A DNA stretch of 64,000 nucleotides, taken from positions 64,001-128,000 of the IMG/VR virus record IMGVR_UViG_3300050343_000199; one strand, 5' to 3'. Position 1 is the stretch's first letter. Each line of letters opens with the position of its first letter. The notes under the pieces are model-generated. The model saw only the letters and a list, made by a program, of their open reading frames with translations, was not told the DNA's origin and did no database searches. Source of the DNA: a virus. Shown piece after piece: positions 1 to 42,617 of this stretch. Position numbers and translations under genes: made by a program.

Positions 1-2968
1 TAGATGATAATACATCTGTACTATTAAAAGTACCACTTACATCACGTAGGGCAAATTTAGTTCCCGAAAATACATTTCCTACAATCTTACCAGTAGATCC
101 AGTTACACTTTGAGTAATGATGTCCCCATCAAATAAGTATGCAATTGATTTTAATTCAACGAATAATGCTTTGGTGTCTTGAGATTCAATACTATCTACA
201 GATCTTCCTTGTACAGAAGAAACCTCAGCACTTGCTCCAAATCCATCAGTATCTAAATTATCAATAATTAACTCAGATCCAACAGAAAAATTATTAGTAC
301 TATCTAAAACAGAAACAGAACTAATACTACCTCGTTTTACATCAGTGATCTTTGCTAATGCAAATTCTCCATTCTTAGTAATATTAGATGTTCTAAGTCT
401 TTTAGCAAATGTTGGAACATTATCTTGTGAAAGTTCAGAATTATAATTTGAATCAACTGGTAAAGAATAATAATTATCACCTAAAATATAAGGAAATACT
501 GGATCACCTTGAGTATCAAGAGTTGCAAAGTATGCATAAGTTCCTTCTGGGTAATCTGGTGTTACACAGTATCTTCCATTATTTTGATCTAAACTACCAT
601 ACTCAGCAATATACGTAAAATCATCAATGAATGTTCCAATAGGATATTGACTAACTAATGGACCATTAGATCTACTATTATTTCTAGTATAACTACTAGT
701 CATTCTAGTAATCGTACTTTGAGAATCTAAAGGATCTTGATGTCCAAATGGACCATAGATTGGATTTCCGTCATAAGCAAAACCAATAATAGGTGAGTGA
801 GTTACTCCAGTATCTCCAGACCTAATAGTAGATGGTGCTGCATAATAAGCATAACCAGAACCACGATTTATTACATAGTTATTGAAAAAATATCCATTTT
901 CGGAATCTAAAGAAGATTGATTTTTGTAAAACTTATCTTTTCTCCATTGTCTGATAGATGCAGTTGCTTCAGATCCGGATCCTACTGCAATAATATCTAC
1001 TTGTACATTTTCTTGTGAATATAAACTACCACCATTAATTTTCTCAAATCTATCAATAGCACCTGCAGTGGTAACAACTGCACGATATACTGCAAATCTT
1101 CCTCTACCTGCAGAATCTGTAATTCTTACTTCAGGTGCAGAAGAATAATACTCACCAGCATTTTCAACTACAATACTAGTAATTTCACCATTAGTGATAA
1201 TTGCTCTTGCCTGAGCATTTCTACCTGATAATACTTCTACAGTAGGAATTGAATTATAATCTCCGGGAGTATCAACAATAACAGACTCAACTACTTGACC
1301 TGCTAATCTAGTTCTTGCTAAGTTAGAAACCCCGTCAATTAATATAAATGGTGGTTTAACGTATCCAGATCCTCGTGATGTAACTGCAATAGATTGAATA
1401 GCACCTGAATTGACTACTTCCTCATCTTTGTAACTTAGAAAAGGAATACCATTAATTGCAATACCAATATCTCTATATAATGTCTTATAAATTTCTGTAG
1501 TTTGTATTGGATTCTTTCTGATGATCTTTAGTAGTTTTTGATCTTGAGCATCCGAAGGTGGAGTTGGAATGCTATGCGAAGGAAATCCTGATGATGCAAT
1601 ATAATATCCGCTACCATCTTCAAAAATTGCAGATACATTTGAGTTAAGTCCTGCAACCGCAGCAGAACCTGCACTAAAAACCCATCTTAAATTATTTTGA
1701 GCATCATTAATTCTAATATCATTAGTTAAAAATCCAGACTCGGAAATTTCTACTGATTCTCCAGGATTTGAATATGGAGATTCAACAGAATTGTTTAGTC
1801 CATATAAAAGACCAAATACCTGTAGTTGAATATTACCAGAAGATACTTCTAGGTTATAACTAACAGTTGTTTCAGGTTGATAAGAACCATTACCGTTTCT
1901 TGTTTTAATTACAAATTGATTTACATTTTTTTCTTCAAATGTAAAAATTTCAGATCCTATTACAAAAGATCCTTTTGTCTCCCAACCCATTGTAGAAAAA
2001 ACATTTACCCTATCACCAACAGTTGTTGATGGAGATATAGGACTTGTTAATTGAGTCTTTAAAGATGAATTAAAATTTCCATTAACACTAGATTCGTTTA
2101 GAATAATATCATATAATTCTTCATTATCAAAAGTACCACTATATTTGACATTATCTACAACTGCAGATGCATAATTACCTTCTACATTTTGAGTAATCTG
2201 CTTTCCAATTAAGTCGTTTGGGTCTCCATTAAGAATTTTTACTCTTAATGCATATGATTGAATCCAGTTAGATTCCGATGACTTTAACGTAAAATCTCTT
2301 GGATATGCAACATCAGGATTCGGATCATCTTGAATTAAACATTTAAATAGAAACTTAATAGAACTATCAGTTCCTTTTGCTCTATAAAAATCGGTAATAT
2401 TTTTTAGTAAAGTTCTCTTGTCAACTCCTTCCTTCAGGTATGCTTCAGGGAAATCTGCAAGGTATTGTGCTTCAAAACTTTTAACTAAAGAATATAAAAA
2501 TAGATTACTAATATTTTGTACAGTAGACCCATTAACATGAGTATCTGCTTGTGTGGTTACAAAAGTACTACTATTATAAAGATCACCAATAGTAGTATTA
2601 CCACTGACACCACGACTTACTTCTAAAAATTGAGTATCTGTTCTTTCTGCATAAAAACAAATCTCATTATCAATTTTGATGTATCCACCAATCTTAGGAA
2701 ATGAAGTTGCATCAGCAACAGTAATTGTTGTGCTTAATTCACCTAAAGATCCAACAATGGTAGTTGACTCTTTAAGAATATTCGTTTCGTAAAAATCAAT
2801 ATCACGATACGATTGAAGATTCGCAATGATATCAACCGGTTGACCTTGTAATTCTAATTGCTCATAATATTTTTGTATGAACTTACTAAAAAGTTCATAC
2901 TCTTCATTAATAAAGTCCGGTAATTGTGACTCAACTAGATATGAGATTTTATTAGCAGTTTTGACCAT
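1..2968 (-). CDS. gp7: Baseplate wedge initiator, large structural protein (3' end runs off the window)
   Basis: ATG at 2968, 7 nt after the gp6 stop, reads MVKTANKISYLVESQLPDFINEEYELFSKFIQKYYEQ, the typical cyanomyovirus gp7 N-terminus. The frame is still open at base 2 (VSGTFNSTDVLSS). Absent from the ORF track because there is no stop in the window. Confidence 0.8.
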   Translation of the reverse strand, partial: MVKTANKISYLVESQLPDFINEEYELFSKFIQKYYEQLELQGQPVDIIANLQSYRDIDFYETNILKESTTIVGSLGELSTTITVADATSFPKIGGYIKIDNEICFYAERTDTQFLEVSRGVSGNTTIGDLYNSSTFVTTQADTHVNGSTVQNISNLFLYSLVKSFEAQYLADFPEAYLKEGVDKRTLLKNITDFYRAKGTDSSIKFLFKCLIQDDPNPDVAYPRDFTLKSSESNWIQSYALRVKILNGDPNDLIGKQITQNVEGNYASAVVDNVKYSGTFDNEELYDIILNESSVNGNFNSSLKTQLTSPISPSTTVGDRVNVFSTMGWETKGSFVIGSEIFTFEEKNVNQFVIKTRNGNGSYQPETTVSYNLEVSSGNIQLQVFGLLYGLNNSVESPYSNPGESVEISESGFLTNDIRINDAQNNLRWVFSAGSAAVAGLNSNVSAIFEDGSGYYIASSGFPSHSIPTPPSDAQDQKLLKIIRKNPIQTTEIYKTLYRDIGIAINGIPFLSYKDEEVVNSGAIQSIAVTSRGSGYVKPPFILIDGVSNLARTRLAGQVVESVIVDTPGDYNSIPTVEVLSGRNAQARAIITNGEITSIVVENAGEYYSSAPEVRITDSAGRGRFAVYRAVVTTAGAIDRFEKINGGSLYSQENVQVDIIAVGSGSEATASIRQWRKDKFYKNQSSLDSENGYFFNNYVINRGSGYAYYAAPSTIRSGDTGVTHSPIIGFAYDGNPIYGPFGHQDPLDSQSTITRMTSSYTRNNSRSNGPLVSQYPIGTFIDDFTYIAEYGSLDQNNGRYCVTPDYPEGTYAYFATLDTQGDPVFPYILGDNYYSLPVDSNYNSELSQDNVPTFAKRLRTSNITKNGEFALAKITDVKRGSISSVSVLDSTNNFSVGSELIIDNLDTDGFGASAEVSSVQGRSVDSIESQDTKALFVELKSIAYLFDGDIITQSVTGSTGKIVGNVFSGTKFALRDVSGTFNSTDVLSS

Positions 2969-29612: not shown

Positions 29613-30977
29613 TCAGAGTTCCATCAACCACCAACCACGAAGAGAAGGTGGAATTGTTCTGGCATTAGAGGATCCTTCAATGTCAACAGGACCAGCATAA
29701 ACTAAACCAAAAGCAGCATTTCTAGATTGAACTACAAGTTCTCCAGAATCCCATGCCGTTGATAGTGTTTGACCAGCACCAGCACCAACTCTAGATCCAG
29801 TAGTATCACCTTGAATTGCTGTTTGAACTGCTCCATCTTTCAATGCTCTAATAATTAAACTTGTGTTATAAGTTAGATTTCCGCTAAGTTCCGTAAATCT
29901 AATCATATCGCCAGTTTGAGCATCATTTGGTAAGTACAAGACCATATTACTACCACTAGAAGTATTAACCAAGTAGTTATTATTAACTTCAAGTGGATTA
30001 TCTTGCTGTTGACCAATACCAGTGGTAGGATCAAAATCAAGATATGTATGTCTTCTACCACCATTACCTGTCCAATATTTCTCAATACCAAACGAATCAA
30101 TAGCGTTGTTTTGATAAATCTTGAAGTCTTTCGGACCATCACTACCACCAATACCTGCAGAACCCATATTATCAATATGGAATACTACATCAGATGCATT
30201 TTCAGTAATCAGTAATCTACCAGCTTGATAGAATGTTTCACCCATCTGAAGACTGCCAGTTCTTCCCTGTACACTAAATGAAGGTACAGATGAACAAATA
30301 CCGTTCATCTGGCAATCATCCCAGTAAACTCTAAAATCACCGAAGATATTAGCAGAACCCTTCAGGGTCATGCCATTAGTCTTATTGATAGGATCTTCAA
30401 TAGATCCATCTCCAGAGTGACCATCGTCATTTGCAATTGACAATACTAGAGTTTTACTATCAGAACCATACATTCTAAATGCACCACCATAGATGGTAGT
30501 ATCATCATAGACACTAAGTTCGCCACCATTATATAAGTCATAATATGGTGTTGTTGCAGTATTTGGTTCTCTAATACTCTTAGACATCTTGACTGCATAA
30601 ACTGCATCAAGAGAACCATCAACACTATCAGGAACAAAGAATTCACTACCAATCCTGACATAAGTTGGATAATCTAGTTTAGGTGAAATTAGATCTCCAT
30701 TACGAAGTCTAATCTCTAATCTAACATCGCTAGTATTCGGACTACGAGCCTTAAGGGCAGTTGCACGAGCAGATTGAGTTGCAGGAATGTCATCTAATAG
30801 AACTGTTGTTCTAGGAGCACCAACTAATTTGACAACATTTACACCTGCTTGGAATGCCTGAGCTGTCGTTCCTTCACGTCCTCTACCACCAGAATTATAA
30901 GTAGAATTACTTGATGTTGGTAGAATTAATCCACCAGTATTTGTATCTGTGCGTGGTGTATCAGTTATCTGAATCCG
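29613..30977 (-). CDS. C-terminal part of the giant structural/tail protein (frame open 130 codons upstream of the first ATG)
   Basis: No stop from 30977 to 29613. The upstream part reads IQITDTPRTDTNTGG...GREGTTAQAFQAG. C-terminus ...SLRGWWLMEL. Confidence 0.65.
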   Translation of the reverse strand, partial: RIQITDTPRTDTNTGGLILPTSSNSTYNSGGRGREGTTAQAFQAGVNVVKLVGAPRTTVLLDDIPATQSARATALKARSPNTSDVRLEIRLRNGDLISPKLDYPTYVRIGSEFFVPDSVDGSLDAVYAVKMSKSIREPNTATTPYYDLYNGGELSVYDDTTIYGGAFRMYGSDSKTLVLSIANDDGHSGDGSIEDPINKTNGMTLKGSANIFGDFRVYWDDCQMNGICSSVPSFSVQGRTGSLQMGETFYQAGRLLITENASDVVFHIDNMGSAGIGGSDGPKDFKIYQNNAIDSFGIEKYWTGNGGRRHTYLDFDPTTGIGQQQDNPLEVNNNYLVNTSSGSNMVLYLPNDAQTGDMIRFTELSGNLTYNTSLIIRALKDGAVQTAIQGDTTGSRVGAGAGQTLSTAWDSGELVVQSRNAAFGLVYAGPVDIEGSSNARTIPPSLRGWWLMEL

Positions 30978-33900
30978 TTAATAGTGGTTTTATTAGAATC
31001 AATGAATACATTACCAGTTACAGAATTAATTTCAAATACGGTTGATTCTGTAGAAGTATCACATCCATTCTTAACTCTAAATGATTTGGCAACTTGATCA
31101 AGTAAGGTCTTAACTTTAAATATTTCACCTGTATCATCAACACCATCACCAGAAGGAGTGCCATCATCGCGAGAAATAATAACATAGTCTCCAATACTGA
31201 TGTCTCCACCAAATTGTGCTAGGTAAATATCTTCTTCAGTTCCAGAGTTGTCAAGATTGGTGGTAATCCAAGTAGATTCAAACTGAACAGTACATTTGTA
31301 GATTGCAGCAGTATCGTTATGATCAGATCTAATTTCAGTAAATGTTCCAAATGGAAGTCTCTCAACTATAAGATAATATGGAGCAACGTTGATTCTTGGT
31401 AAAGAAACGATTTTAACAAATTCGGGATGTTTATTACCTGTAATAGCAGTATCAACTAGAAGAATATCATTCTCGGTAAAATACTGAGCATCTTCAGCAT
31501 CAACTGGTTTATTCTTAATTGGTAAGTAATACTGATTACCACTCAATGCAGAAAGAACTTGAGGTTCAACATTTGGAGTACCACCAATTGTAGTAATTTC
31601 ATTCTGGAATACTGTACCACCCCAATCACCACTACCAGAAGTATCTACAGCATTGTATCTCGCATCGGATACAGCAACTCTAGCAACTGTAATAAGATCA
31701 ACATTAGACTTGAATAGATTATTTCCGAGAATACCGCTGGTATGAGTAATCTTACTAGAACCAATTTGTCCTCTATCTGCTGTGAAAGAGTAAGATGCAA
31801 ATCCACCACACAGGGTCATATCAGAATTAAATCTAGCAGTAGAATCAACAATTAAATTGTTTCTAATTCTAGTACTTCCACCCTGACCACCGACTGTAAT
31901 ATCAGAAGCATTAGTTGCAAAATCAAGTTTTGACGTGCTAGAATTACCAGAGAAAAATTCTACAGTGCCTGCAGTAGAAGAAAGTTTAACCGTATCATCA
32001 AGACCTCTTCTTGTACCTAGTTGAATATCACCAGAAACTTTAAGAGCCTTTGTGTCAATTTGAGTAAACGATAAAGATTCGTTGTTGTTATAAGCACCAC
32101 CGATAGTAATCTTAGAAATATTGCTATTAAGATCTGGTGTATTACCAATCCAAATGTTGCTATGCAGAGATTTATTACCAACATAAACATATTGATCTTG
32201 TGTTGTGGTGTTGAGTAGATTTAAAGTTTTTACAGAATTACCAACGTTAAGTGTGCCAGTAAAAGCAGTATCAGTGACTAGATTAAATGTACCACTTGTC
32301 TGAGATGTTCTGATCTCAGCAGTTGTACCGTCGTTGCCATTGACTTCAATGTCATGCTCAAAACGAGCATCATCAGTAAATCTAGATGTACCATCAACAA
32401 CCAGTGCTCTGTCTAGTTCAGCATTAGTTACATTAATACCAACACGACCATTATTTGTAGTTGCAACTCTAAGTGTTGCTTCATTTGCTGGTGTTGCACT
32501 GTCGCCACCAACTAGAAGTGCATAATCAGAAGTTGTTTCAGTTCTATTAGCGAACGCAGGATTACTTAGATAATCAGAAATTATCTTACCACTGATAAAT
32601 GCATTACCAACAACATCAAGGTTTGCACGAGGAGCAGTATCAACATCAACAAATGCAGTCATATATGCATCATGTGCAGATCTTGCGACTGTGTTAATAC
32701 CAAGTTTGTATTGACCAATGTCACTGGTATCAGTTCTAATTGTTTCAGAACCAATAACTCCAAATTCTTTCCAAGAAGAATTAGAGAACTCTAATCTTAC
32801 ATCATTTCCAAGTGCTACCTCACTAGACCAAAGTCTTGGATTGTCATTTGCAACGTTAGATCTGTTTTCAATAATAGCAATTTGACAAGTATTAGCACTG
32901 GCAGTAAATCCATTACCAATGATTTGCCAGAGACCATTAAATCCAGGGTCACTATAGTTAGAAATTCTGATCTGGGATCCGCTGGTAACACCAACTTGAT
33001 CATTAGATAAGTTGTTACCCCAAGTAATGGTGATAACAGTGCTTCCATTCATCTGGAAGTTAAGGAGATTTGCATTAACAACTCGCGCAAAGAAGTTTGC
33101 GTAAATCCATCCAAGAGACCCAGTACCACCAACTTCAGATCCTTTGAGAAGAATATCTCCAGATAATGGAACTTCAGACCCGTACAATACATTTTGGGTA
33201 GTATTAATTGCAGTTCCAAGACCTGTGCTATACACGGGACTTTGATTAGGTGTAATATTTGACCCAATGCTTCCAACTACATGATTTTGAATTTTATAAC
33301 CTTGTGCAGCACCATTTGAACCACGTGGATTAAACTGGAATATTGAGGCAGCAACTCGGTTTCTTGCAATTACAATGTCACCATTTGTATCTTGATTGAG
33401 GAATTGATTAGTCTTATCAAGTGTTGCATCATCACCATCACTAGGTGATACGTTAGAAACTACAGTAAATGCATAATCTCTAACTCTACCCAGAACATTA
33501 ATAGTAACAGGAGAGTTAAATGTACTCATGCGATCTTGAGCATCACCACCATTAACAGTGATGTACTCGTTAAATGTTACAGGAGTATCAAAAGTAGTAA
33601 CAAGACTACCGATATCTTCAGTGTCATCATCAGAATCAACTAATGCAGCAGATTCCAAGAATACTTCTTCACCAGTAATAGCATCAATCTTACGGTTACC
33701 AATGTATAGGTCACCGTTAGAGTTTAGACCAGTGTAGAATACTAAACCACCATTTTGCTTCTTAGACTGTGCATAGAAGTCTTGGGTTGGGGTTAGAACG
33801 ATCTCCTGACGGGCAGGAAGACCGGTTGAATAGTTACCAGGACCGAATCCAAGGTACTCAAAGGTATGGTTACCTGCACGAGCAATAGAGGGTCTTCTAA

Positions 33901-36900
33901 GTTCAACATATAGTCTCTGATCAGACATTACAGTGCTGTCACCAGCAATAGGAATGCGACGATCTTCAGATCCAGATGCAGCATTACCCTTCTGCGCTCT
34001 TAATCTATTATCAATGCTAGAATTAACTTGAGTATAAGTATTCTGCAACAGTGCTTGCTGAGTCGTAAAGTCAAGCATTGCTTCACGAGTCATTGAACCC
34101 TTAAAGTCGTTAACTCTAACAAGACCGTGAGTATAGTTATCTGCAGCAGAATATGTTGCAGGAACATCAAGTTGGGTGTTATCTAACTGCTTGAACCAAA
34201 GAGGATCGTTCTTATAGTTCAGTGGATATAGTTTGCTGATTGGTTGAGAGAACTTAAAGTTACGGAAGTTACCCTGATTACCAGCACCAGTTGGGAATGG
34301 AGAGATGTTACCACGAACAGCAGTTAGATAGTAGATACCATCTTGCTGACCGTAAATACGGCGTTGAACCTCTTCAACATCAAAGATGTAGAAGGTATCA
34401 TCAAGTTCCCCAGTATCAGTTACAGACTCTACGTAGAACTGAACGTTTGCATCGTCAGTAATGATATCACCAGGAGTGATAGTATAAACTTTGGATCCAA
34501 GTTGTCTGTAGTAATATTCTGGATAGTTCTTACGAATAAGATCCTTAATGTATAGTGACTTACCGAAGTCTTCATCAGTCAGTAGGTCAGCAAATACTGC
34601 ACCTTGAGCAAATCGGATATTTTCAAAGACTGAATAATCAATCTTACCAGAAATACCCTTGAGAATCAAATACCAGTCACTTGTATTTGGAACATTGAGT
34701 GCTGCATGTATGAATGCATAACCCGAAGAATTGCCATACCAATCAACTCTGTTTGCAGAATTTGATTGAGTCTTGTTAGCAACGAAAGAACCACCCTGAG
34801 GTGCAGTAACCTTAACTGTAGTAAACGTTTCATTCAACAATCCAACGTTTGTAATACCTAGGTCAAATACAGTTACTTCTAATAGTTCGTCACCACTTTG
34901 TGCATCATTAAAGTATCTACCAGACTGAATAGTCATTGAGACATAATTAGAAGTCTCAATACTCTTAGCGTACTGAGTTGTGCCTACAACGTCTCTCTTA
35001 TATGGATCATATGCAGTCTCTTCATTTAGATTATTACTAAGGAAATCTGCCTTAGTGAAACCAATAACTTCATTTGCTTGTACTGGGTTGAAGAACCTTG
35101 CTTTTGTTACAGAACCAGATACTGGTTTAAGTACAAGTTTTTGTGGCAGAAGTTTTCTAGTTTCATCCTTACGAACTTTAATGGTAAATCCATTAATAGG
35201 ATCACGAACCGCTTGTAAGTACTCAGGAATAACATAACGAAGACGATAGATACGATCATCTTTATCTCTTTCATCCTTGATCCTTTCAAACCAAGCATCG
35301 TTAGTCTTATCTTGACCAGAGATATCGCTATAAGTATTCTCATGCAATCTAGTTAAGATGCTTTCATCATACCTAGGATCATTAACATTAGAAGAATGAT
35401 CCTCAACCTGCATATACCACTTACCATAAATTGCTGGTGTAGTATTTGGATTTAAATATGACGGATCATATTTTACAGGTGATTCACGCTTATCCGCAAA
35501 TGTTGAGAAGTCATAAGAACCAGTCTGGAATGTAATTGCATTAATATCAGCAATTGCATCTGACTTTGTTGCGTGAATAGTGAAAGTTTTTTCAGTTTGA
35601 TATCTTGCCCAGAAGAATTTATCTCCACGAATTCTACCATTACTATCAGAGATAGAACTATCTCCAGCATAGTTAGAACCTACAAGAGGAACACTTCCAC
35701 CCTCATTTGCTCTAAAGAATACCTGATGACCAGAAATATCTGCAAAAGGAACATCAAAGATGTGTGGTACATCAGTACGAATACTAGAGTTAGTATTTGC
35801 CTCTAGGATACAAGAGTATTGATGCAAATCATAATTATCATCTAATACAAATTGATATACATCAATTTCAATATCAGGATCAATAGACTCTACTTCAGCA
35901 GAGTGAATATAGATACCTGCTGCAGCATTTTCTTTGCTGTTTGCAAGCATAATCTTTGTTTGATCTGTTCCGTCAAAGACTGAAGTTCCTTCATAAGGTT
36001 CTGGTTTTGTCTTTCTTGCAGGAGCAATTACATAATACTCTTCGTTGGTTTCAAAACCATTTGGGAGTCTAATCTTTCTCTTGTCAACATCAACATAAGA
36101 GTTGGTTACACTATCATAACGAGGACGTGGAACCAATCTAATTGGTGTACCAGTTTCTAGGTTATGTGGGTTGGCACCAGCACCTGTTCTAAGAGTCCAA
36201 GTTGTTGCTCTAGAAGCAAGTTGTGTGGTAAGTTGAGAAGGTTCTACTCTAGGAATAGTATTCAGACCAGTCTGAATAATCGTTGAGATATTAGTAAAGA
36301 ACTGACGAATAGCAGAAGCTTGATCAGCACACTCTGGATAAGAGGTATGTTGAGTAATAGTATCGTCAACAGTTGGTGAGAACTCAGATGTATATACACC
36401 TGAAGTTAAAGTGAAGTACAGGTAAGAGTTTGTGGTGGTTGCGTTTGCATTTACCGATGGACCAAATGCAAGTCCGAGTGGAGACTCAACTCTATCAACT
36501 GACTGTAAGTATCCAGGATTTGCAATTGTATTATTAACAATCTGGAACAGAGTAGTAACAGCAGATGCTACATTCTGACAAGATCCGTTAGATACAGTTC
36601 TAAGAACAGATGAAAGTGATGTTGGGGTTGATACTGCACTAGAAATAATATTAAAGAGTGTAGTAATAGTTGTTCTTGCATCTTCACACGATCCAACAGA
36701 TAAAGTTCTTGCAACATTAGCAAGAGAAGATGGTGTGTTGATAGCAACAGTAACTAGATCAGTGAAAGTTGTCAGAGATGATTTAACATCATTACACGAT
36801 GCATTAGATAAAGTACGTGTAACACCATATAGTAGATTACTAGAAGTAATGGTATTAGTAAGTATTTGAATCAACGTGGTGATCGTAGCTGCCTGTGAAG

Positions 36901-39900
36901 CACAAACAGGGGATCCATCAGCAGTAATTGTTAGGTCTTTAGATTGAGTTAGAGTTGTATGACCACCAACAGTTACATTTTCATTTCTCATGACCTCAAT
37001 CATGAGAGCACGTGCTTCAGTAAACGCGAAAATTGTTTCTGTTTCTTCACCAGCGACATGTGCCCCAGTAGCATAGAAGTTAGCAGCATCCCATACTCTG
37101 TCATTACCGCCATATGCTAAGTTATGAGCAACAACATCTACAACGTCCTTGATGTCATCAAGACAATCATTACTGTTTCCAGTTGGAACTGTAAATGTAG
37201 GGAAGTTTGCTAACATTCTACCCAAAGCAATCTCAGAAATAAAGTCTTTGTTTGCTAGAATTAAGTTTCTTGCATCTGCAGACTTATTATCTACAGGTGT
37301 AGGAGCATCAACTGTAATAGTTGTGTCTTTTGTCTGAGTTAAACCATGACTACCGACAAGGAGCATGGTTTCATTTCTCATTGCTTGGACCATTAGGTCT
37401 CTAGCATATTCAAGAGCTTGTGTAGTCTGTACTTCTTCACCGGCAACATGAGCACCCTGAACATACAGGTTTGCCATGTCCCAGACTCTATCATTTCCAC
37501 CAAATGCTAAGTTATAAGAAACTTCCTGAACGAAATCATCAATGTCATCAATACAATCTTGAGCGTTGCCAGTTGGAGGAACAAACCCAGGATTCTCAGC
37601 GATCATTCTTTCGTATGCTTCAGCAGCAATCACTGCTTTATTGGAAAGAATTAAGTTGCGAGCATCACCATTACGATCAATTACTGGATCTGGTGTATTA
37701 TATGTAATTGATGTATCATAGGTTTGAGTTAAACCATGAGACCCTACCGAAAGGACCTTTTGGTTTCTCATAACTTGAGCAGCCATTTCTTTTGCTTGCT
37801 CAAAAATATGAAGAGTTTGTGCTTCTTCACCTGCTACATGAGCACCTTTAACATAAGAATAGGCAGCATCCCAAGATTTATCGTTACCACCGTATGCTAA
37901 GTTATCAGCAACTGCTTCTAGAATATCAATAACATCATCAATACAATCCTGTGGATTACCTGTAGGAGTAGTAAATGAAGGGTATACTGTAAGCATTCTT
38001 GCATATGCTTCAGTTGCGATCAAAGTTTTGTTAGCAAGAATTAGATTACGAGCATCACCATAACGATCTTTGACTAGTTCAGGAGCAACATAGGTGATAG
38101 TAGTATCTTTCTGTTGTGATAAACCATGAGATCCAAAGATGAATACATCTTCATTACGCATGACTTGGATGCACATATCTCTAGCATATGTAAATGCTTT
38201 GATAGTCTCATCTTCTTCGCCAGCAACATGAGCGCCGGTTTCATACAAGTATGCTGCATCATAAGTATCAGCATTACCACCAAAAGCAGTATTTTCTGCA
38301 ACTGCTTCAATTACATCAACAATATCATCCTTACAATCCTGTGGATTACCTGTAGGAGTAACAAATCCAGGGAAGTCAAGGACCATGCGATCATATGCTT
38401 CAGCAGCAATGAATGCTTTATTGAGAAGGATTAAATCTTTTGCGTCTCCGTAACGATCAGATACCAGTTTCTTCTCACTGTATACTGCTTTTTGACCCAA
38501 CTCAATTGTAGTTGCATCAATAACACGCTTAACATAAGTGTTATCTGGGATGGCAGGAGAATTAGGACGTGAAGCTCCAGCATTTAACTTACCATCAGTA
38601 AACTCAGAAGGATCGTAATCTGCAACGATCATACCCTGAGAAATACCAGAAGTATCGCCAATGTTTACAATAGAAGATGCTGCTGTAGTAGAAACACCTT
38701 GACGCAGATACGAGAAATTACGCATCGCTGCGATTGCTAAATCTCTCGCGTAATTATATCCTTCTAAAGTTTCTGATAGTTCTCCAGTGATATAAGAGAG
38801 ATTATTTCCAACATAATAAGACTCTGCTGCCTGGATAGTATTAATATTACCACCAAGACGAAGATCTTGTACTGTAGCATCAATCAGATATCCAATATCG
38901 CGACGACATTTCTCAATGCTGATGCCAGATTTAACTACAAGATTTGGATACTTTCCAGTGATAAATCCATATGCTTCAGCAGCAATGAAGCTCTTATTTT
39001 CTTCAATTCTATCTGCTGCATCAAGATCCTTATTATTAAGTACAAGATTGCTAGGATTAAGAATAGATGCAGTTGCAGTAAATTTCTTAAATCCATTTGG
39101 TGATAGAGTAGCATCAAAAATGTTACTAGCACCAGCACTTCTTGGAGTTAGTTTTACATATAGTTTTTCATCACTTCTTGCACCAATTCTGAATCCATCA
39201 ATTGATGCTGCAGGTCTCTTGGCAGGATCATATGCTTCATCATCACCAAAGAAAATTTTACTGTGATTATTAGGATCATTAGATGCTTTTACATCAATAG
39301 TATAGTAAGCATTCTTCTTAGTATTTCCTTGTGTTTCAGGGATAGTTTTTGGAGGAACAATATCCGTGATGTAACCACCCTTATCTTGATTAAAGGCAAA
39401 TCCTTTAAAACCAATAGCATGAAGTGATGTGTTACCGAAGTTAGAGTTAGAGTTGGTGATAGACATATCACCACCACTTTCCATTAGGAAGTGATCAGCA
39501 AAACCAACAGCGAAGATAGAAACGTTCTGAATAAATGCGTCATCTGATGCACGAACGTGGAAGTTTCTCCAGTCATCCTTCCAATATGCATCACCTTTAG
39601 TGTGATATGGAACAGTCGCAAATGCATCAGTTAATGATGCCTGATTAAACGTGTTAGAATACTCATCATAACGAATGAATGCTCTGTCATCTTTCTGCAA
39701 TGAAACGCCCGTATACTGAGCGATAACCATGGATTTAAATCCAGTTGCCTTCAGTCCATTTGCCCAGATTCCGCAAATACCCCAGGTAGAGCGAATAGAG
39801 CAGTTAAAGACATACGGAGACGCGGATTCAACGGAATCAACTTCCGCTTTAACTACCGCATTTGCACTTAATCCACTTTGAGCTGTATATGATGTTCCGC

Positions 39901-40957
39901 TAACTAAACTTACACTGGTTCCAAGAGCTGCAACAGTTCCAGGAATTTTATAAGTAAACTTCCTACCATCTACTAGATCAATATCTTCTACGGGGAAGGT
40001 GCCGTTTAATTGATCATCTAACCCATTGTTTTCAATAGAAACAAACTGGTTCTTGAAATAACCATGATTTACTTTAGTGGTAATATTGACACTGATTGTT
40101 CCTGCAGGAGAGGAATCTACACACTCAATACTTTCAATAGAGCGAATGTCTGATAGAGGACCAACAATTCTAGTTTCTTGGATTCTTTCAGTAAATTCAC
40201 CGGGATCGTCAATTGTTGGTTGATACTGAGAAAATGCCTTAGCAATCTTCTGATAGTATAGACCTAATTCTTCTTTGTCTGCATATTCAAATACAGTTAG
40301 TTTATGGTGAGAATAGTTAGGAATTGCTAACTGATCCCAGTATCCATTCTGATAATATACCTTACCTACACCTTCGTTCTTATTGTAGAGAGGAGAAGAA
40401 GGTTCTAGATCACCATCTTTGATCGTAAACTGCCAGAAATAACATGCACCAGTTACATTAAAGATAGCAGAACGCTTCTCTAACCTGTCTGCAGGATCTG
40501 GGACATATAAAGGACGGACAACAGTCCTACGAAGATCATAACCTACAAGAGATGAACCTCTAGGTAGAATTGCACCACCTTCAGTGTTATTGAATCTATA
40601 AAGGATATTATTTGGATCTGAGATATCAAGATTAGAGTTATCTTCCCACTCATTTAATGCTTGATTGAATGCAAATGCATCAATACCCGTAGTTCCAACA
40701 ATGCCAGGACGGTTATCAATATAATGATTACCAGGCATCAACATGATCGTGAACTGGTCAAAACGATCATTATCGGGACCAGGAAGGTATGAATACCTTG
40801 CAATCTCTAAGAATGCTCTTTGAATAGACTTAAATGGTCTAATTGGGGAATTTCCCCTGTTGTTCAACTCATCCGAAGCATTGAAATCATCGGGGGAGAC
40901 ATACAAATACTTACCAGTTTTACTACTAATAAGATTGTCAAGTCTAGTCAAAGCCAT
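30965..40957 (-). CDS. Giant virion structural/tail fibre protein (>3300 aa), truncated by a frameshift at about 30975
   Basis: MALTRLDNLISSKTGKYLYVSPDDFNASD...RPFKSIQRA N-terminus typical of cyanomyovirus structural proteins. Internal 130-aa repeats. Confidence 0.85.
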   Translation of the reverse strand: MALTRLDNLISSKTGKYLYVSPDDFNASDELNNRGNSPIRPFKSIQRAFLEIARYSYLPGPDNDRFDQFTIMLMPGNHYIDNRPGIVGTTGIDAFAFNQALNEWEDNSNLDISDPNNILYRFNNTEGGAILPRGSSLVGYDLRRTVVRPLYVPDPADRLEKRSAIFNVTGACYFWQFTIKDGDLEPSSPLYNKNEGVGKVYYQNGYWDQLAIPNYSHHKLTVFEYADKEELGLYYQKIAKAFSQYQPTIDDPGEFTERIQETRIVGPLSDIRSIESIECVDSSPAGTISVNITTKVNHGYFKNQFVSIENNGLDDQLNGTFPVEDIDLVDGRKFTYKIPGTVAALGTSVSLVSGTSYTAQSGLSANAVVKAEVDSVESASPYVFNCSIRSTWGICGIWANGLKATGFKSMVIAQYTGVSLQKDDRAFIRYDEYSNTFNQASLTDAFATVPYHTKGDAYWKDDWRNFHVRASDDAFIQNVSIFAVGFADHFLMESGGDMSITNSNSNFGNTSLHAIGFKGFAFNQDKGGYITDIVPPKTIPETQGNTKKNAYYTIDVKASNDPNNHSKIFFGDDEAYDPAKRPAASIDGFRIGARSDEKLYVKLTPRSAGASNIFDATLSPNGFKKFTATASILNPSNLVLNNKDLDAADRIEENKSFIAAEAYGFITGKYPNLVVKSGISIEKCRRDIGYLIDATVQDLRLGGNINTIQAAESYYVGNNLSYITGELSETLEGYNYARDLAIAAMRNFSYLRQGVSTTAASSIVNIGDTSGISQGMIVADYDPSEFTDGKLNAGASRPNSPAIPDNTYVKRVIDATTIELGQKAVYSEKKLVSDRYGDAKDLILLNKAFIAAEAYDRMVLDFPGFVTPTGNPQDCKDDIVDVIEAVAENTAFGGNADTYDAAYLYETGAHVAGEEDETIKAFTYARDMCIQVMRNEDVFIFGSHGLSQQKDTTITYVAPELVKDRYGDARNLILANKTLIATEAYARMLTVYPSFTTPTGNPQDCIDDVIDILEAVADNLAYGGNDKSWDAAYSYVKGAHVAGEEAQTLHIFEQAKEMAAQVMRNQKVLSVGSHGLTQTYDTSITYNTPDPVIDRNGDARNLILSNKAVIAAEAYERMIAENPGFVPPTGNAQDCIDDIDDFVQEVSYNLAFGGNDRVWDMANLYVQGAHVAGEEVQTTQALEYARDLMVQAMRNETMLLVGSHGLTQTKDTTITVDAPTPVDNKSADARNLILANKDFISEIALGRMLANFPTFTVPTGNSNDCLDDIKDVVDVVAHNLAYGGNDRVWDAANFYATGAHVAGEETETIFAFTEARALMIEVMRNENVTVGGHTTLTQSKDLTITADGSPVCASQAATITTLIQILTNTITSSNLLYGVTRTLSNASCNDVKSSLTTFTDLVTVAINTPSSLANVARTLSVGSCEDARTTITTLFNIISSAVSTPTSLSSVLRTVSNGSCQNVASAVTTLFQIVNNTIANPGYLQSVDRVESPLGLAFGPSVNANATTTNSYLYFTLTSGVYTSEFSPTVDDTITQHTSYPECADQASAIRQFFTNISTIIQTGLNTIPRVEPSQLTTQLASRATTWTLRTGAGANPHNLETGTPIRLVPRPRYDSVTNSYVDVDKRKIRLPNGFETNEEYYVIAPARKTKPEPYEGTSVFDGTDQTKIMLANSKENAAAGIYIHSAEVESIDPDIEIDVYQFVLDDNYDLHQYSCILEANTNSSIRTDVPHIFDVPFADISGHQVFFRANEGGSVPLVGSNYAGDSSISDSNGRIRGDKFFWARYQTEKTFTIHATKSDAIADINAITFQTGSYDFSTFADKRESPVKYDPSYLNPNTTPAIYGKWYMQVEDHSSNVNDPRYDESILTRLHENTYSDISGQDKTNDAWFERIKDERDKDDRIYRLRYVIPEYLQAVRDPINGFTIKVRKDETRKLLPQKLVLKPVSGSVTKARFFNPVQANEVIGFTKADFLSNNLNEETAYDPYKRDVVGTTQYAKSIETSNYVSMTIQSGRYFNDAQSGDELLEVTVFDLGITNVGLLNETFTTVKVTAPQGGSFVANKTQSNSANRVDWYGNSSGYAFIHAALNVPNTSDWYLILKGISGKIDYSVFENIRFAQGAVFADLLTDEDFGKSLYIKDLIRKNYPEYYYRQLGSKVYTITPGDIITDDANVQFYVESVTDTGELDDTFYIFDVEEVQRRIYGQQDGIYYLTAVRGNISPFPTGAGNQGNFRNFKFSQPISKLYPLNYKNDPLWFKQLDNTQLDVPATYSAADNYTHGLVRVNDFKGSMTREAMLDFTTQQALLQNTYTQVNSSIDNRLRAQKGNAASGSEDRRIPIAGDSTVMSDQRLYVELRRPSIARAGNHTFEYLGFGPGNYSTGLPARQEIVLTPTQDFYAQSKKQNGGLVFYTGLNSNGDLYIGNRKIDAITGEEVFLESAALVDSDDDTEDIGSLVTTFDTPVTFNEYITVNGGDAQDRMSTFNSPVTINVLGRVRDYAFTVVSNVSPSDGDDATLDKTNQFLNQDTNGDIVIARNRVAASIFQFNPRGSNGAAQGYKIQNHVVGSIGSNITPNQSPVYSTGLGTAINTTQNVLYGSEVPLSGDILLKGSEVGGTGSLGWIYANFFARVVNANLLNFQMNGSTVITITWGNNLSNDQVGVTSGSQIRISNYSDPGFNGLWQIIGNGFTASANTCQIAIIENRSNVANDNPRLWSSEVALGNDVRLEFSNSSWKEFGVIGSETIRTDTSDIGQYKLGINTVARSAHDAYMTAFVDVDTAPRANLDVVGNAFISGKIISDYLSNPAFANRTETTSDYALLVGGDSATPANEATLRVATTNNGRVGINVTNAELDRALVVDGTSRFTDDARFEHDIEVNGNDGTTAEIRTSQTSGTFNLVTDTAFTGTLNVGNSVKTLNLLNTTTQDQYVYVGNKSLHSNIWIGNTPDLNSNISKITIGGAYNNNESLSFTQIDTKALKVSGDIQLGTRRGLDDTVKLSSTAGTVEFFSGNSSTSKLDFATNASDITVGGQGGSTRIRNNLIVDSTARFNSDMTLCGGFASYSFTADRGQIGSSKITHTSGILGNNLFKSNVDLITVARVAVSDARYNAVDTSGSGDWGGTVFQNEITTIGGTPNVEPQVLSALSGNQYYLPIKNKPVDAEDAQYFTENDILLVDTAITGNKHPEFVKIVSLPRINVAPYYLIVERLPFGTFTEIRSDHNDTAAIYKCTVQFESTWITTNLDNSGTEEDIYLAQFGGDISIGDYVIISRDDGTPSGDGVDDTGEIFKVKTLLDQVAKSFRVKNGCDTSTESTVFEINSVTGNVFIDSNKTTINGFR
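36900..38460 (-). repeat. Four tandem ~130-aa protein repeats
   Basis: D(R/N)xxDA(K/R)xLILxNK units start at about 38458, 38068, 37678 and 37291 (390, 390, 387 nt spacing). Confidence 0.85.
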
Positions 40958-40997
40958 ATTACTCAACCGCTGCGGTTACTAAGATCTGATCTCAGAT

Positions 40998-41106: not shown

Positions 41107-41718
41107 TTAGTTTGTAACTAAAGAATGCAACCACCCTGTAGCAATATATTTAATTTCGCTTTTGGGTGGGTATCCACGATGAAAAAAAGTCCAACATGCC
41201 GGAAAAATGATCATTCTTCCAGTCTTGGGTTGAATTTTTGTACCATCAATAAATTCTGTGTAACCATCTTCTACGATATCATTAAGATACCATATAAACG
41301 TTAACAGGCGAACACCACTATTTTCAATTTCAGACTTAATTGTATTAAAGTCACTATGCCAAGTATATCCAGAATTAGGATTAGTTCTTTGTATTTGATA
41401 CCCAGAATCTTTCATTTCATTTAGCAAGATTTCAATAGTATCTTTATTAGTGCGTTCTTTAATGATCTCACTATTTACATAATTTCTTAAATGCTCAGTA
41501 AGAGTTTTACAAAATACATCATCTTCATATTTCCAATCGGAAAGAGAAGAAATTTGTAGATCGGTAGAATCTTTTACTTCTTTGTTAATATAACCATGAC
41601 CAATATGACCTTCAAATTTACGCTCGTCTGCTTCAAATTTTTCAATACATGTTTTACAGAAATGCTCACTTAAGGCATTATCTGCACAGTATATAAATTC
41701 TGAATACTGAAAAGACAT
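41107..41718 (-). CDS. 2OG-Fe(II) oxygenase (prolyl-hydroxylase-like)
   Basis: WHSD...TFIWYLND...FPACWTFFHRG...KYIATGW. Confidence 0.9.
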   Translation of the reverse strand: MSFQYSEFIYCADNALSEHFCKTCIEKFEADERKFEGHIGHGYINKEVKDSTDLQISSLSDWKYEDDVFCKTLTEHLRNYVNSEIIKERTNKDTIEILLNEMKDSGYQIQRTNPNSGYTWHSDFNTIKSEIENSGVRLLTFIWYLNDIVEDGYTEFIDGTKIQPKTGRMIIFPACWTFFHRGYPPKSEIKYIATGWLHSLVTN

Positions 41719-41756
41719 AATACGAAGACATAAGGAAGGGGCATCTCACCCCTCAG

Positions 41757-41940
41757 AACTACTTGGTTAACAAGGCTAGTTTAACCCCGATCTCCCATTC
41801 AGGCAGTCGCGAGTTCGCGAGTGCGGGAGAATGCAACGATATTATTCGCTGCGGTGTCAGATGTTTTTGCATCTATGGTTTGCTTATCCAAGCAGGTTTC
41901 AGTAACACTCCTTATACCCCGTCTAAACCATGGCACCCCC
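41757..41940 (-). ncRNA. ssrA: tmRNA coding piece (permuted two-piece tmRNA)
   Basis: 5' GGGGGTG-CCATGGTTTAGAC-GGGGTATAAGGAGTGTTAC (tRNA-like 5' arm and helix 2). Tag ORF at 41849-41799 encodes ANNIVAFSRTRELATA*. TCTCCC/GGGAGA helix encloses the stop. 3' end approximate. Confidence 0.9.
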
Positions 41941-41945
41941 AGGAG

Positions 41946-42027
41946 TGGGCAGAGTTGGATTTGAACCAACGTAGGCAGAGCCAGAAGATTTACAGTCTTC
42001 CTCCTTTAACCACTCGGACATCTACCC
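41946..42027 (-). tRNA. trnY: tRNA-Tyr (GTA), nested between the two tmRNA pieces
   Basis: GGGTAGA/TCTGCCC acceptor, GAAGA-CTGTAAA-TCTTC anticodon arm, long variable arm, GGTTCAAATCC. Confidence 0.95.
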
Positions 42028-42029
42028 AA

Positions 42030-42080
42030 TGGAGGTGAGGGGAATTGAACCCCTGTCCGAAATACCGGTGGTGTCACCTA
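42030..42080 (-). ncRNA. ssrA: tmRNA acceptor piece
   Basis: GTGACAC...GTATTTC-GGAC-AGGGG-TTCAATT-CCCCT-CACCTCC-A. CACCTCC pairs with GGGGGTG giving G3-U70, discriminator A73. 5' end approximate. Confidence 0.9.
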
Positions 42081-42096
42081 TTCCACAAAAGTGGAA

Positions 42097-42169
42097 AGCC
42101 AAACACAGGACTTGAACCTGCGACCTGATCTTTACAAAAGACCTGCTCTACCAGCTGAGCTAGTTTGGC
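42097..42169 (-). tRNA. trnT: tRNA-Thr (TGT)
   Basis: GCCAAAC/GTTTGGC acceptor, GGTCT-TTTGTAA-AGATC anticodon arm. Confidence 0.95.
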
Positions 42170-42617
42170 GTTTAAACTCTAAATGTCCCCATTGAGATCC
42201 CCAGAGTTTTTTTCCAGTCTCAGGATTAATTCCTGAATCCATGACCTTGTAGTCATTATAACCTAAAATTATGCTGTTTGTCAAGTAAGTTTTAATTCCT
42301 TTCCAAAACACCCAGCAAGTACATTCAGTATTACTACCGTGATATTTGCTTCCAATCAATTCAAATAATGTATCGCATCCTTCTTTATATACACCTTTTA
42401 GGTCATAATTTTTGACGCGAATTTTTTCCCCTTCTGGGAAAATACGAATTAGAAATTTCCTATAGGGTTCTCTTTTATGAAAAGATTGGGTGCCCTCAAA
42501 CCAATCACCACCAATCCACCTATGCTTGATAATAATTCTAGCATATCTAGTAGGATATTTTAATGCCTGTTCTTTATTGTCAAAAGTACCTTCAATATAA
42601 TCATGAAAACGTGTCAT
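42132..42617 (-). CDS. cpeT: CpeT/CpcT-type phycobilin lyase-like protein
   Basis: EGTFDNKEQALKYPTRYARI...PYRKF...GCD...C...LWGS..G..EFKR. Confidence 0.75.
   Translation of the reverse strand: MTRFHDYIEGTFDNKEQALKYPTRYARIIIKHRWIGGDWFEGTQSFHKREPYRKFLIRIFPEGEKIRVKNYDLKGVYKEGCDTLFELIGSKYHGSNTECTCWVFWKGIKTYLTNSIILGYNDYKVMDSGINPETGKKLWGSQWGHLEFKRQTSSAGRAGLL

Follow-up and report, generated by a model that had tools for sequence, protein, structure and literature searches.

The window analysed here, a 64,000-nucleotide stretch comprising bases 64001-128000 of the 192,818-bp IMG/VR virus record IMGVR_UViG_3300050343_000199, belongs to a phage genome with a CheckV completeness of 100% and a GC content of 38%, for which the nearest relatives in GenBank are Synechococcus myoviruses of T4-like type from the Kyanoviridae. 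The genome carries ten tRNAs and a single tmRNA gene. This gene is circularly permuted and occupies positions 41736-42096 on the minus strand, as determined with ARAGORN and two Rfam models; its neighbours are cpeT (42132-42617) and a gene for a 2OG-Fe(II) oxygenase (41107-41718). The small ORFs adjoining the locus had no Pfam match, and neither a glutamine riboswitch nor any other Rfam family adjoining the tmRNA gene was detected at gathering thresholds.

All parts of the locus lie on the minus strand. A sigma-70-type promoter, TTGACA-18 nt-TATAAT (42255..42284), matches the consensus at 12 of 12 positions, lies within the 3' part of the cpeT ORF and stands ~85 nt upstream of a tRNA-Thr(TGT) gene identified by ARAGORN (42097..42169). 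The tRNA-Thr ends at 42097 and directly abuts the 5' end of the tmRNA acceptor piece, which starts at 42096 (42030..42096; delimited by the Rfam alignment, the sequence and covariation in P2, the T stem and the acceptor stem). The acceptor piece contains a 5' hairpin (42096-42081, Rfam alignment), the 3' strands of helix P2, the T arm AGGGG/TTCAATT/CCCCT (42054-42038) and the acceptor 3' strand CACCTCC (42037-42031) with the discriminator A73 at 42030, after which CCA is not encoded. There follows an intervening segment of 89 nt (41941..42029) that consists of UU, a complete class II tRNA-Tyr(GTA) found by ARAGORN and the Rfam tRNA model (41946..42027), and CUCCU. The coding piece (41736..41940; Rfam alignment and covariation counts) opens with the acceptor 5' strand GGGGGTG (41940-41934), which is followed by CCATGGTTTAGACGGGG, and continues through the D-loop analogue, the 5' strands of P2, the tag frame (41799..41849) and the downstream hairpins. 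RNAalifold places the resume codon within a hairpin, GCAGCGA/UCGUUGC (41833..41852), and the 3' terminus is a G+C-rich, terminator-like hairpin with a T-rich tail (41736..41754), which is also the last hairpin of the Rfam model.

The initial annotation had read the locus as a permuted two-piece tmRNA of picocyanobacterial type, and this was borne out by all three tools. The Rfam model cyano_tmRNA (RF01851) matched over its full length (model positions 1-288) with 134.1 bits against a gathering threshold of 70 (E-value 3e-36), tmRNA_permuted (RF04321) matched over model positions 1-213 with 85.8 bits against a threshold of 47, and ARAGORN called a permuted tmRNA spanning 41708-42119. The permutation itself is visible in the order of the acceptor strands, with CACCTCC-A (42037-42030) upstream of GGGGGTG and the intervening segment between them; brought together, the strands form an acceptor stem of 7 bp in which G3 (41938) faces U70 (42033), whilst the helix 2 (P2) strands read GTGACAC/GTGTTAC. 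The T arm, the acceptor strands, G3-U70, A73 and helix 2 had all been recognised correctly, to the base, in the first reading of the sequence. It had also held that ORF-based annotation overlooks the gene, and the GenBank records of four related phages (Sf-FS3, S-CAM1, S-CAM3 and Marine virus AG-345-P14), which score 120-143 bits on cyano_tmRNA, indeed contain no tmRNA feature. An ARAGORN one-piece "tmRNA" in Sf-FS3 (L001:2218-2635) was discarded as an artefact that covers three tRNAs.

Copies of the cyanobacterial type were gathered by two scans of IMG/VR, the first with the T-arm pattern and the second with the tag-core motif, and by one scan of bacterial genomes. These gave 90 host copies and 51 viral copies. 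The T-arm pattern also drew many IMG/VR matches that proved to be ordinary one-piece tmRNAs from other bacteria. A maximum-likelihood tree of the 117 distinct sequences (34 viral, 83 host), with the spacer taken out, separated viruses from hosts by a single branch whose SH-aLRT support was 100%. The window copy shares 98-99% nucleotide identity with three viral contigs, compared with 62-68% to the host copies. The acceptor stem is GGGGCTG/CAGCTCC in 90 of 90 host copies, whilst the 51 viral copies possess GGGGGTG/CACCTCC (29 copies), GGGGGTG/CACTTCC (16), GGGGGCG/CGCTTCC (4) or GGGGATG/CATCTCC (2); the viral changes are compensated and G3-U70 is always retained. In the window, acceptor pair 5:68 is G-C, flipped relative to the host C-G, and the D-loop analogue of its lineage reads TTTAGAC, compared with TTTCGAC in most copies. 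Thus where the cellular ssrA lineage is marked by the GGGGCTG/CAGCTCC stem, a tag ending in PVAA and grouping with hosts, the window copy has GGGGGTG/CACCTCC, LATA and a place in a virus-only group. When the tree was rooted on the hosts, the earliest viral branches (L018 and L108) had the host-like tag tail QAAPVAA, and the rooted topology fits a single old capture followed by divergence.

Covariation was assessed in an alignment of 33 distinct viral sequences, using the structure of the Rfam model. Paired cells amounted to 93.9%, compared with 49-54% when partners were slid by one to three columns, and both-side changes occurred in 15 pairs, with 123 double-change cells where shuffling gave a mean of 49.5. 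Pairing reached 100% of cells in the T stem and the acceptor stem, and G3-U70 was present in 33 of 33 sequences while its neighbour pairs covary. In P2, whose two helices were 95.0% and 85.2% paired, seven pairs changed on both sides, and a single column pair (21/187) was A-U in 13 sequences, C-G in 13 and U-A in seven. The hairpin around the resume codon (GCWGCGA/UCGUWGC, RNAalifold) was 100% paired, one of its pairs being U-A in 18 sequences, A-U in 15 and broken in none; in hosts its pairing is looser. As the viral helices covary and the tag frame is open, the gene is maintained in phages. One element of the initial annotation fared less well. The TCTCCC/GGGAGA helix that it had drawn around the tag stop can pair in 91% of cells across the 33 viral sequences, yet compensatory changes are absent, and in the Rfam model the GGGAGA bases are part of the downstream hairpin, which does covary, leaving the proposed helix possible but unsupported. 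RNAalifold also suggested a long-range pairing of AAUAGG at the 5' end of the acceptor piece with CCUUG in the 3' hairpin, which is indistinguishable from a rival hairpin, given that there is one covarying column, that the two share it and that it tracks a single clade. A minimum free energy fold of part of the precursor (192 nt) did not recover the cloverleaf and acceptor stem and had an unremarkable energy (z = -0.6).

The tag frame opens at GCG (41849) and extends to GCC (41802), with TGA at 41801-41799, and reads ANNIVAFSRTRELATA*, exactly as the initial annotation had given it; the host consensus is ANNIVRFSRQAAPVAA. The resume codon GCG was set by homology to the host GCG-AAC-AAC frame. 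ARAGORN proposed a tag seven codons longer (AKTSDTA + ANNIV...), which was rejected on host-tag homology and the Rfam alignment. A stop codon closes the frame in 47 of 47 full-length viral copies. Variant codons in the tag core ANNIVAFSR are mainly third-position changes (nine synonymous against four non-synonymous), as would suit a translated tag, although this conservation is partly owed to the selection on the tag-core motif in the second scan; among cyanobacterial-type copies from the first scan, which used the T-arm pattern alone, 15 of 16 have the core. The synonymous pair GCA/GTT versus GCT/GTA within the tag is attributable to the RNA hairpin and not to selection on the protein. Outside the core the tags of phages and hosts part company. 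Host tags have 16 codons and end in PVAA in all 83 full-length copies, whilst viral tags have 14, 16 or 24 codons and end in LATA (21 copies), TVAA (19), PVAA (2) or another sequence (5), and position 6 is Ala in phages but Arg in most hosts. In Escherichia coli, ClpX reads the last residues of the tmRNA tag, so a changed end could alter the fate of tagged proteins.

The tRNA-Tyr within the intervening segment, on which the initial annotation made no comment, sets the window gene apart from most of its relatives. The Rfam alignment leaves 87 unmodelled nucleotides in the spacer, where the model expects ~10, and the spacer of other viral copies that have no tRNA is 5-12 nt long; alignment to four phage relatives reveals a clean insertion of ~85 nt that parts A73 from the short spacer ahead of G1. 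Searched alone, the insert reaches 58.4 bits with the Rfam tRNA model (RF00005; cut-off 29, model positions 1-71), and it possesses a GTA anticodon, a long variable arm (11-nt extra arm), G1-C72 and A73. It is the sole tRNA-Tyr in the tRNA list of the whole genome, so the phage relies on the tmRNA precursor for this tRNA. The same nested tRNA-Tyr is present in 13 of the 51 viral copies and always at the same position, 2 nt past A73 and 4-5 nt ahead of G1, whilst no tRNA was found in the spacers of the 90 host copies (5-98 nt). Two tag classes and no fewer than four variants of the tRNA sequence are represented among these 13 copies, and the variants in the anticodon and acceptor stems of the tRNA-Tyr are compensatory.

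The promoter, the tRNA-Thr, both tmRNA pieces and the terminator-like hairpin form an apparent single transcription unit. A 12/12 promoter match has a rough expectation of ~0.001 in such a region, and promoters matching at 11-12 of 12 positions lie at an equal distance in six further viral copies (L018, L038, L247, L261, L283 and L291); similarly, the same tRNA-Thr is found 42-44 nt ahead of the T arm in many viral relatives. Profile searches of the complete phage genome for SmpB, the CCA-adding enzyme family, ClpP and an RF-1/ArfB domain gave no match, whilst control genomes matched each, which extends to the whole genome the earlier remark that the window has no smpB and means that all protein partners would come from the host. 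CCA is encoded after none of the three discriminators and would therefore have to be added by the host enzyme. RNase P is known to generate the mature 5' termini of tRNA and tmRNA, and the enzymes of tRNA processing also cleave two-piece tmRNAs (PMC11915505), from which we infer that the cuts releasing the tRNA-Tyr are also those that part the two tmRNA pieces.

Judging from the consensus matches, the host sigma-70 polymerase would transcribe, in order, tRNA-Thr, acceptor piece, UU, tRNA-Tyr, CUCCU and coding piece, and would halt at the terminal hairpin. Following the established course of processing, host RNase P would then free the 5' terminus of the tRNA-Tyr and cut at G1, where the coding piece begins, host enzymes would trim the 3' ends after the discriminators of tRNA-Thr, acceptor piece and tRNA-Tyr, and the host CCA-adding enzyme would add CCA to all three. 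The two tmRNA pieces would presumably be held together by the acceptor stem and P2. Assuming that host AlaRS accepts G3-U70 and A73, it would charge the tmRNA with alanine, and host SmpB, if it too accepts the phage RNA, would with EF-Tu bring it to stalled ribosomes on truncated messages, which should abound after phage degradation of host mRNA. Translation would resume at GCG and append ANNIVAFSRTRELATA, and proteins bearing the LATA end, unlike those with the host PVAA, may be handled differently. Rescue of ribosomes stalled on degraded mRNA or through the action of defence nucleases, as the initial annotation had proposed, is the presumed function during infection, as read from the gene's sequence and structure.

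Taken together, we consider it very likely that this is a functional two-piece tmRNA maintained by the phage, of picocyanobacterial ssrA descent and with a long evolution in T4-like cyanophages, which is part of a tRNA operon and has a tRNA-Tyr within its excised segment. A passenger without function, be it a recent capture of host ssrA, what is left of an integration site or host DNA contaminating the assembly, would have precedents, as tmRNA genes are frequent integration sites whose fragments occur in prophages (PMC9004378), and ordinary one-piece bacterial tmRNAs did account for many of the IMG/VR matches to the T-arm pattern. We find a passenger extremely improbable, however, as the gene is complete, is flanked by genes and tRNAs of the phage in a lytic T4-like genome, is just 62-68% identical to any host copy and falls in a group of viral copies alone that has a compensated acceptor stem of its own; contamination and recent capture are ruled out by that host identity and the fully supported virus-only branch. 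The RNA might instead act mainly as a decoy that soaks up host SmpB, AlaRS or EF-Tu and so shuts down host trans-translation, a role with a proposed precedent in the tRNA-like-domain-only gene of mycobacteriophage DS6A (PMC4131195). A phage with no SmpB of its own does compete for that of the host, but a decoy needs the tRNA-like domain only, whereas the viral lineage keeps the whole covarying coding piece, including the resume hairpin, an open tag frame with its stop and the downstream hairpins. We rank this reading as improbable because SmpB binding alone needs none of the conserved structure or the tag.

A functional, phage-maintained tmRNA leaves two of its features to be accounted for, the nested tRNA-Tyr and the tag end. 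The former may be a neutral accident of tRNA-array shuffling, unlinked to tmRNA maturation, in which the spacer happened to be a harmless insertion spot, and this we regard as plausible, if somewhat short of an even chance. The insert is patchy on the viral tree and cassette-like: two sister pairs differ by its presence alone (L090/L275, support 98/98; L251/L255, support 100/99), and the well-supported branches require no fewer than four gains or losses. One copy (L251) combines an S-CAM1-type tRNA-like domain with a window-type tRNA-Tyr and a window-type tag tail, for which recombination between co-infecting phages is the simplest reading. The partial record of L255, which has no insert, holds a homologous tRNA-Tyr at another place, and no homologue was found in the complete genomes of Sf-FS3, S-CAM1 and S-CAM3, which also lack the insert. 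Against mere shuffling, the site is identical each time across two tag classes and several tRNA variants, and as the sole tRNA-Tyr of the genome it makes the phage dependent on the tmRNA precursor. It is conceivable, though we hold it to be doubtful, that the spacer of permuted tmRNA genes serves phages generally as an exchangeable cargo slot, that tRNA-Tyr supply is coupled to tmRNA maturation and that the tag end alters protein fate; if true, the same RNase P and 3'-end cuts would serve both the maturation of the tmRNA and the supply of the tRNA. The tag end invites a different reading, in which the main selected role of the gene is, instead of rescue capacity, to swap the host tag for a phage C-terminus that evades or redirects host proteases. 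The near-complete replacement of PVAA (83 of 83 host tags, two of 47 viral tags), the position of both viral PVAA copies (L018 and L108) on the earliest branches of the host-rooted tree and the exchange of Arg for Ala at position 6 are all in keeping with such re-tagging. Nevertheless, TVAA still has a terminal Ala-Ala, the tail of the LATA class has nine non-synonymous against three synonymous variant codons, which could equally mean relaxed constraint, and the phage encodes no Clp protease, and we therefore deem it rather unlikely that re-tagging is what selection has favoured.

The closest cellular counterpart is the two-piece tmRNA of the picocyanobacteria Synechococcus, Prochlorococcus and Cyanobium, marine and freshwater alike (RF01851), which shares with the window the gene order of acceptor piece, short spacer and coding piece, the common helices, G3-U70 and A73, the unencoded CCA and the tag core ANNIV.FSR. 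It differs in overall sequence (62-68% identity), in pair 5:68 (G-C in the window, not C-G), in tag position 6 (Ala, not Arg) and in the tag end (LATA, not PVAA), and the window gene is further distinguished by its setting among phage tRNA genes in an operon that has a consensus promoter and by the tRNA in its spacer, which 0 of 90 host spacers contain. In phages, a survey of 2014 knew tmRNAs only from mycobacteriophages and Bacillus phage G (PMC4131195), whilst a tmRNA database of 2025 lists 97,179 sequences, 11,946 of them permuted and 79 from phages (PMC11915505). A survey of 18,146 phage genomes reported 53 two-piece tmRNAs, of which 50 were marine or aquatic, and Table S1 of the same study (Buchholz et al. 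2022, PMC9004378) lists, and does not analyse, permuted tmRNAs in S-CAM1, S-CAM3 and AG-345-P14, so the basic finding is not new. The cyanophage two-piece tmRNA is therefore largely known, as a kind already catalogued, though unstudied: a full-text literature search for "phage-encoded tmRNA" returned no match, and for the S-CAM1 tmRNA we found no discussion beyond one table row. These three tmRNAs (120-128 bits on cyano_tmRNA) share the virus-only lineage and the architecture of the window gene, but their spacer is 5 nt long and has no nested tRNA. In S-CAM1 and S-CAM3 the tag tail is STVAA and a tRNA-Arg comes right after the last hairpin of the coding piece, with no preceding tRNA-Thr as in the window; the S-CAM1 type has its own promoter (TTGACA-17-TAMTAT) directly ahead of the acceptor piece. 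The OM43 phage Melnitz and pelagimyophages (PMC9004378) resemble the window phage in being marine and T4-like and in carrying a permuted tmRNA without smpB, and early expression has been proposed for their tmRNA (PMC9004378). Theirs, however, is of alphaproteobacterial type, and in Melnitz it is linked to a glutamine riboswitch, of which none was detected beside the window gene at Rfam gathering thresholds.

What raises the locus above a routine member of this group is the nested tRNA-Tyr cassette and the altered tag end. Phage-borne tmRNA is a little-studied viral route to tuning host translation quality control, here in marine cyanophages, which are of global importance, and the host-to-phage change in the tag end gives a concrete hypothesis on the fate of tagged proteins in infection. 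The locus also provides a natural comparison between close phage tmRNA genes that differ in whether the excised spacer holds a tRNA, which makes testable both the processing of two-piece tmRNA and whether a "waste" spacer can hold a working gene. In practical terms, a nested tRNA may lead annotation pipelines to reject the tmRNA call. For a complete tRNA within a permuted tmRNA spacer we found one earlier published case, an intact tRNA-Ala in the intervening sequence described by Nawrocki, Petrov and Williams (2025) as "a unique feature" (PMC11915505). That tRNA is complete and high-scoring, like the one in the window, but it is a single instance of uncertain origin from a nominally archaeal marine MAG, whereas the cyanophage tRNA-Tyr recurs in 13 of 51 copies, each time at an identical site, and its distribution points to gain, loss or exchange.

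The resume codon of the tmRNA is enclosed by a minus-strand hairpin (window 41833-41852; columns 243-262 of the tmRNA alignment A2), in which the viral lineage exhibits a perfect U-A/A-U swap, 18 sequences carrying one pair and 15 the other. Adherence to the hairpin pairing was looser in the hosts than in the viral lineage, and the enclosing hairpin could influence how the resume codon is presented.

Tag variants were also present among the viral copies. One subclade (records L067, L069, L070, L073 and L253) possesses a 24-codon tag containing an 8-codon insertion (A2 columns 264-300), and the insert pairs without a mismatch with the tag codons just before it to give a 9-bp hairpin (TTCTCTCGT ... 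ACGAGAGAA), so that it was a structured element that extended the tag in this subclade. A different tag was found in viral contig L095 (tmRNA at 1372-1650, minus strand), which encodes the Prochlorococcus-like ANKIVSFRRTAVAV, ending in Ala-Val; this tmRNA sits on a very long branch of the tree and lies within a dense tRNA array in the order Arg, Thr, tmRNA, Asp, Ala, Gly. Typical picocyanobacterial tmRNAs, with the GGGGCTG/CAGCTCC acceptor stem and host tag, occurred on three contigs from MAGs labelled Chitinophaga pinensis or Sphingobacterium (L131, L175 and L182), which are probably mis-binned cyanobacterial contigs.

Upstream of the cluster, the cpeT open-reading frame (42132-42617) overlaps tRNA-Thr by ~38 nt, and its 3′ part contains a predicted sigma-70 promoter matching the consensus at 12/12 positions (window 42255-42284, minus strand). 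Just downstream of the tRNA/tmRNA cluster is a 3333-codon open-reading frame (30965-40966, minus strand), which probably encodes a giant fibre-like protein, judging by its syntenic counterpart in Synechococcus phage Sf-FS3, whose annotation reads peptidase S74 domain protein. The Sf-FS3 annotation also includes a 'hypothetical protein' CDS whose start falls just inside the 3′ end of the tmRNA coding piece, a few bases before it finishes. A one-piece tmRNA called by ARAGORN in the same phage (L001:2218-2635) was rejected as spurious; the call covers three genuine tRNA genes and extends into the actual permuted tmRNA. In Synechococcus phage S-CAM1, a wcaG RNA motif (RF01761, 83.5 bits; L002:5036-5132) is located ~2.3 kb downstream of the tmRNA.
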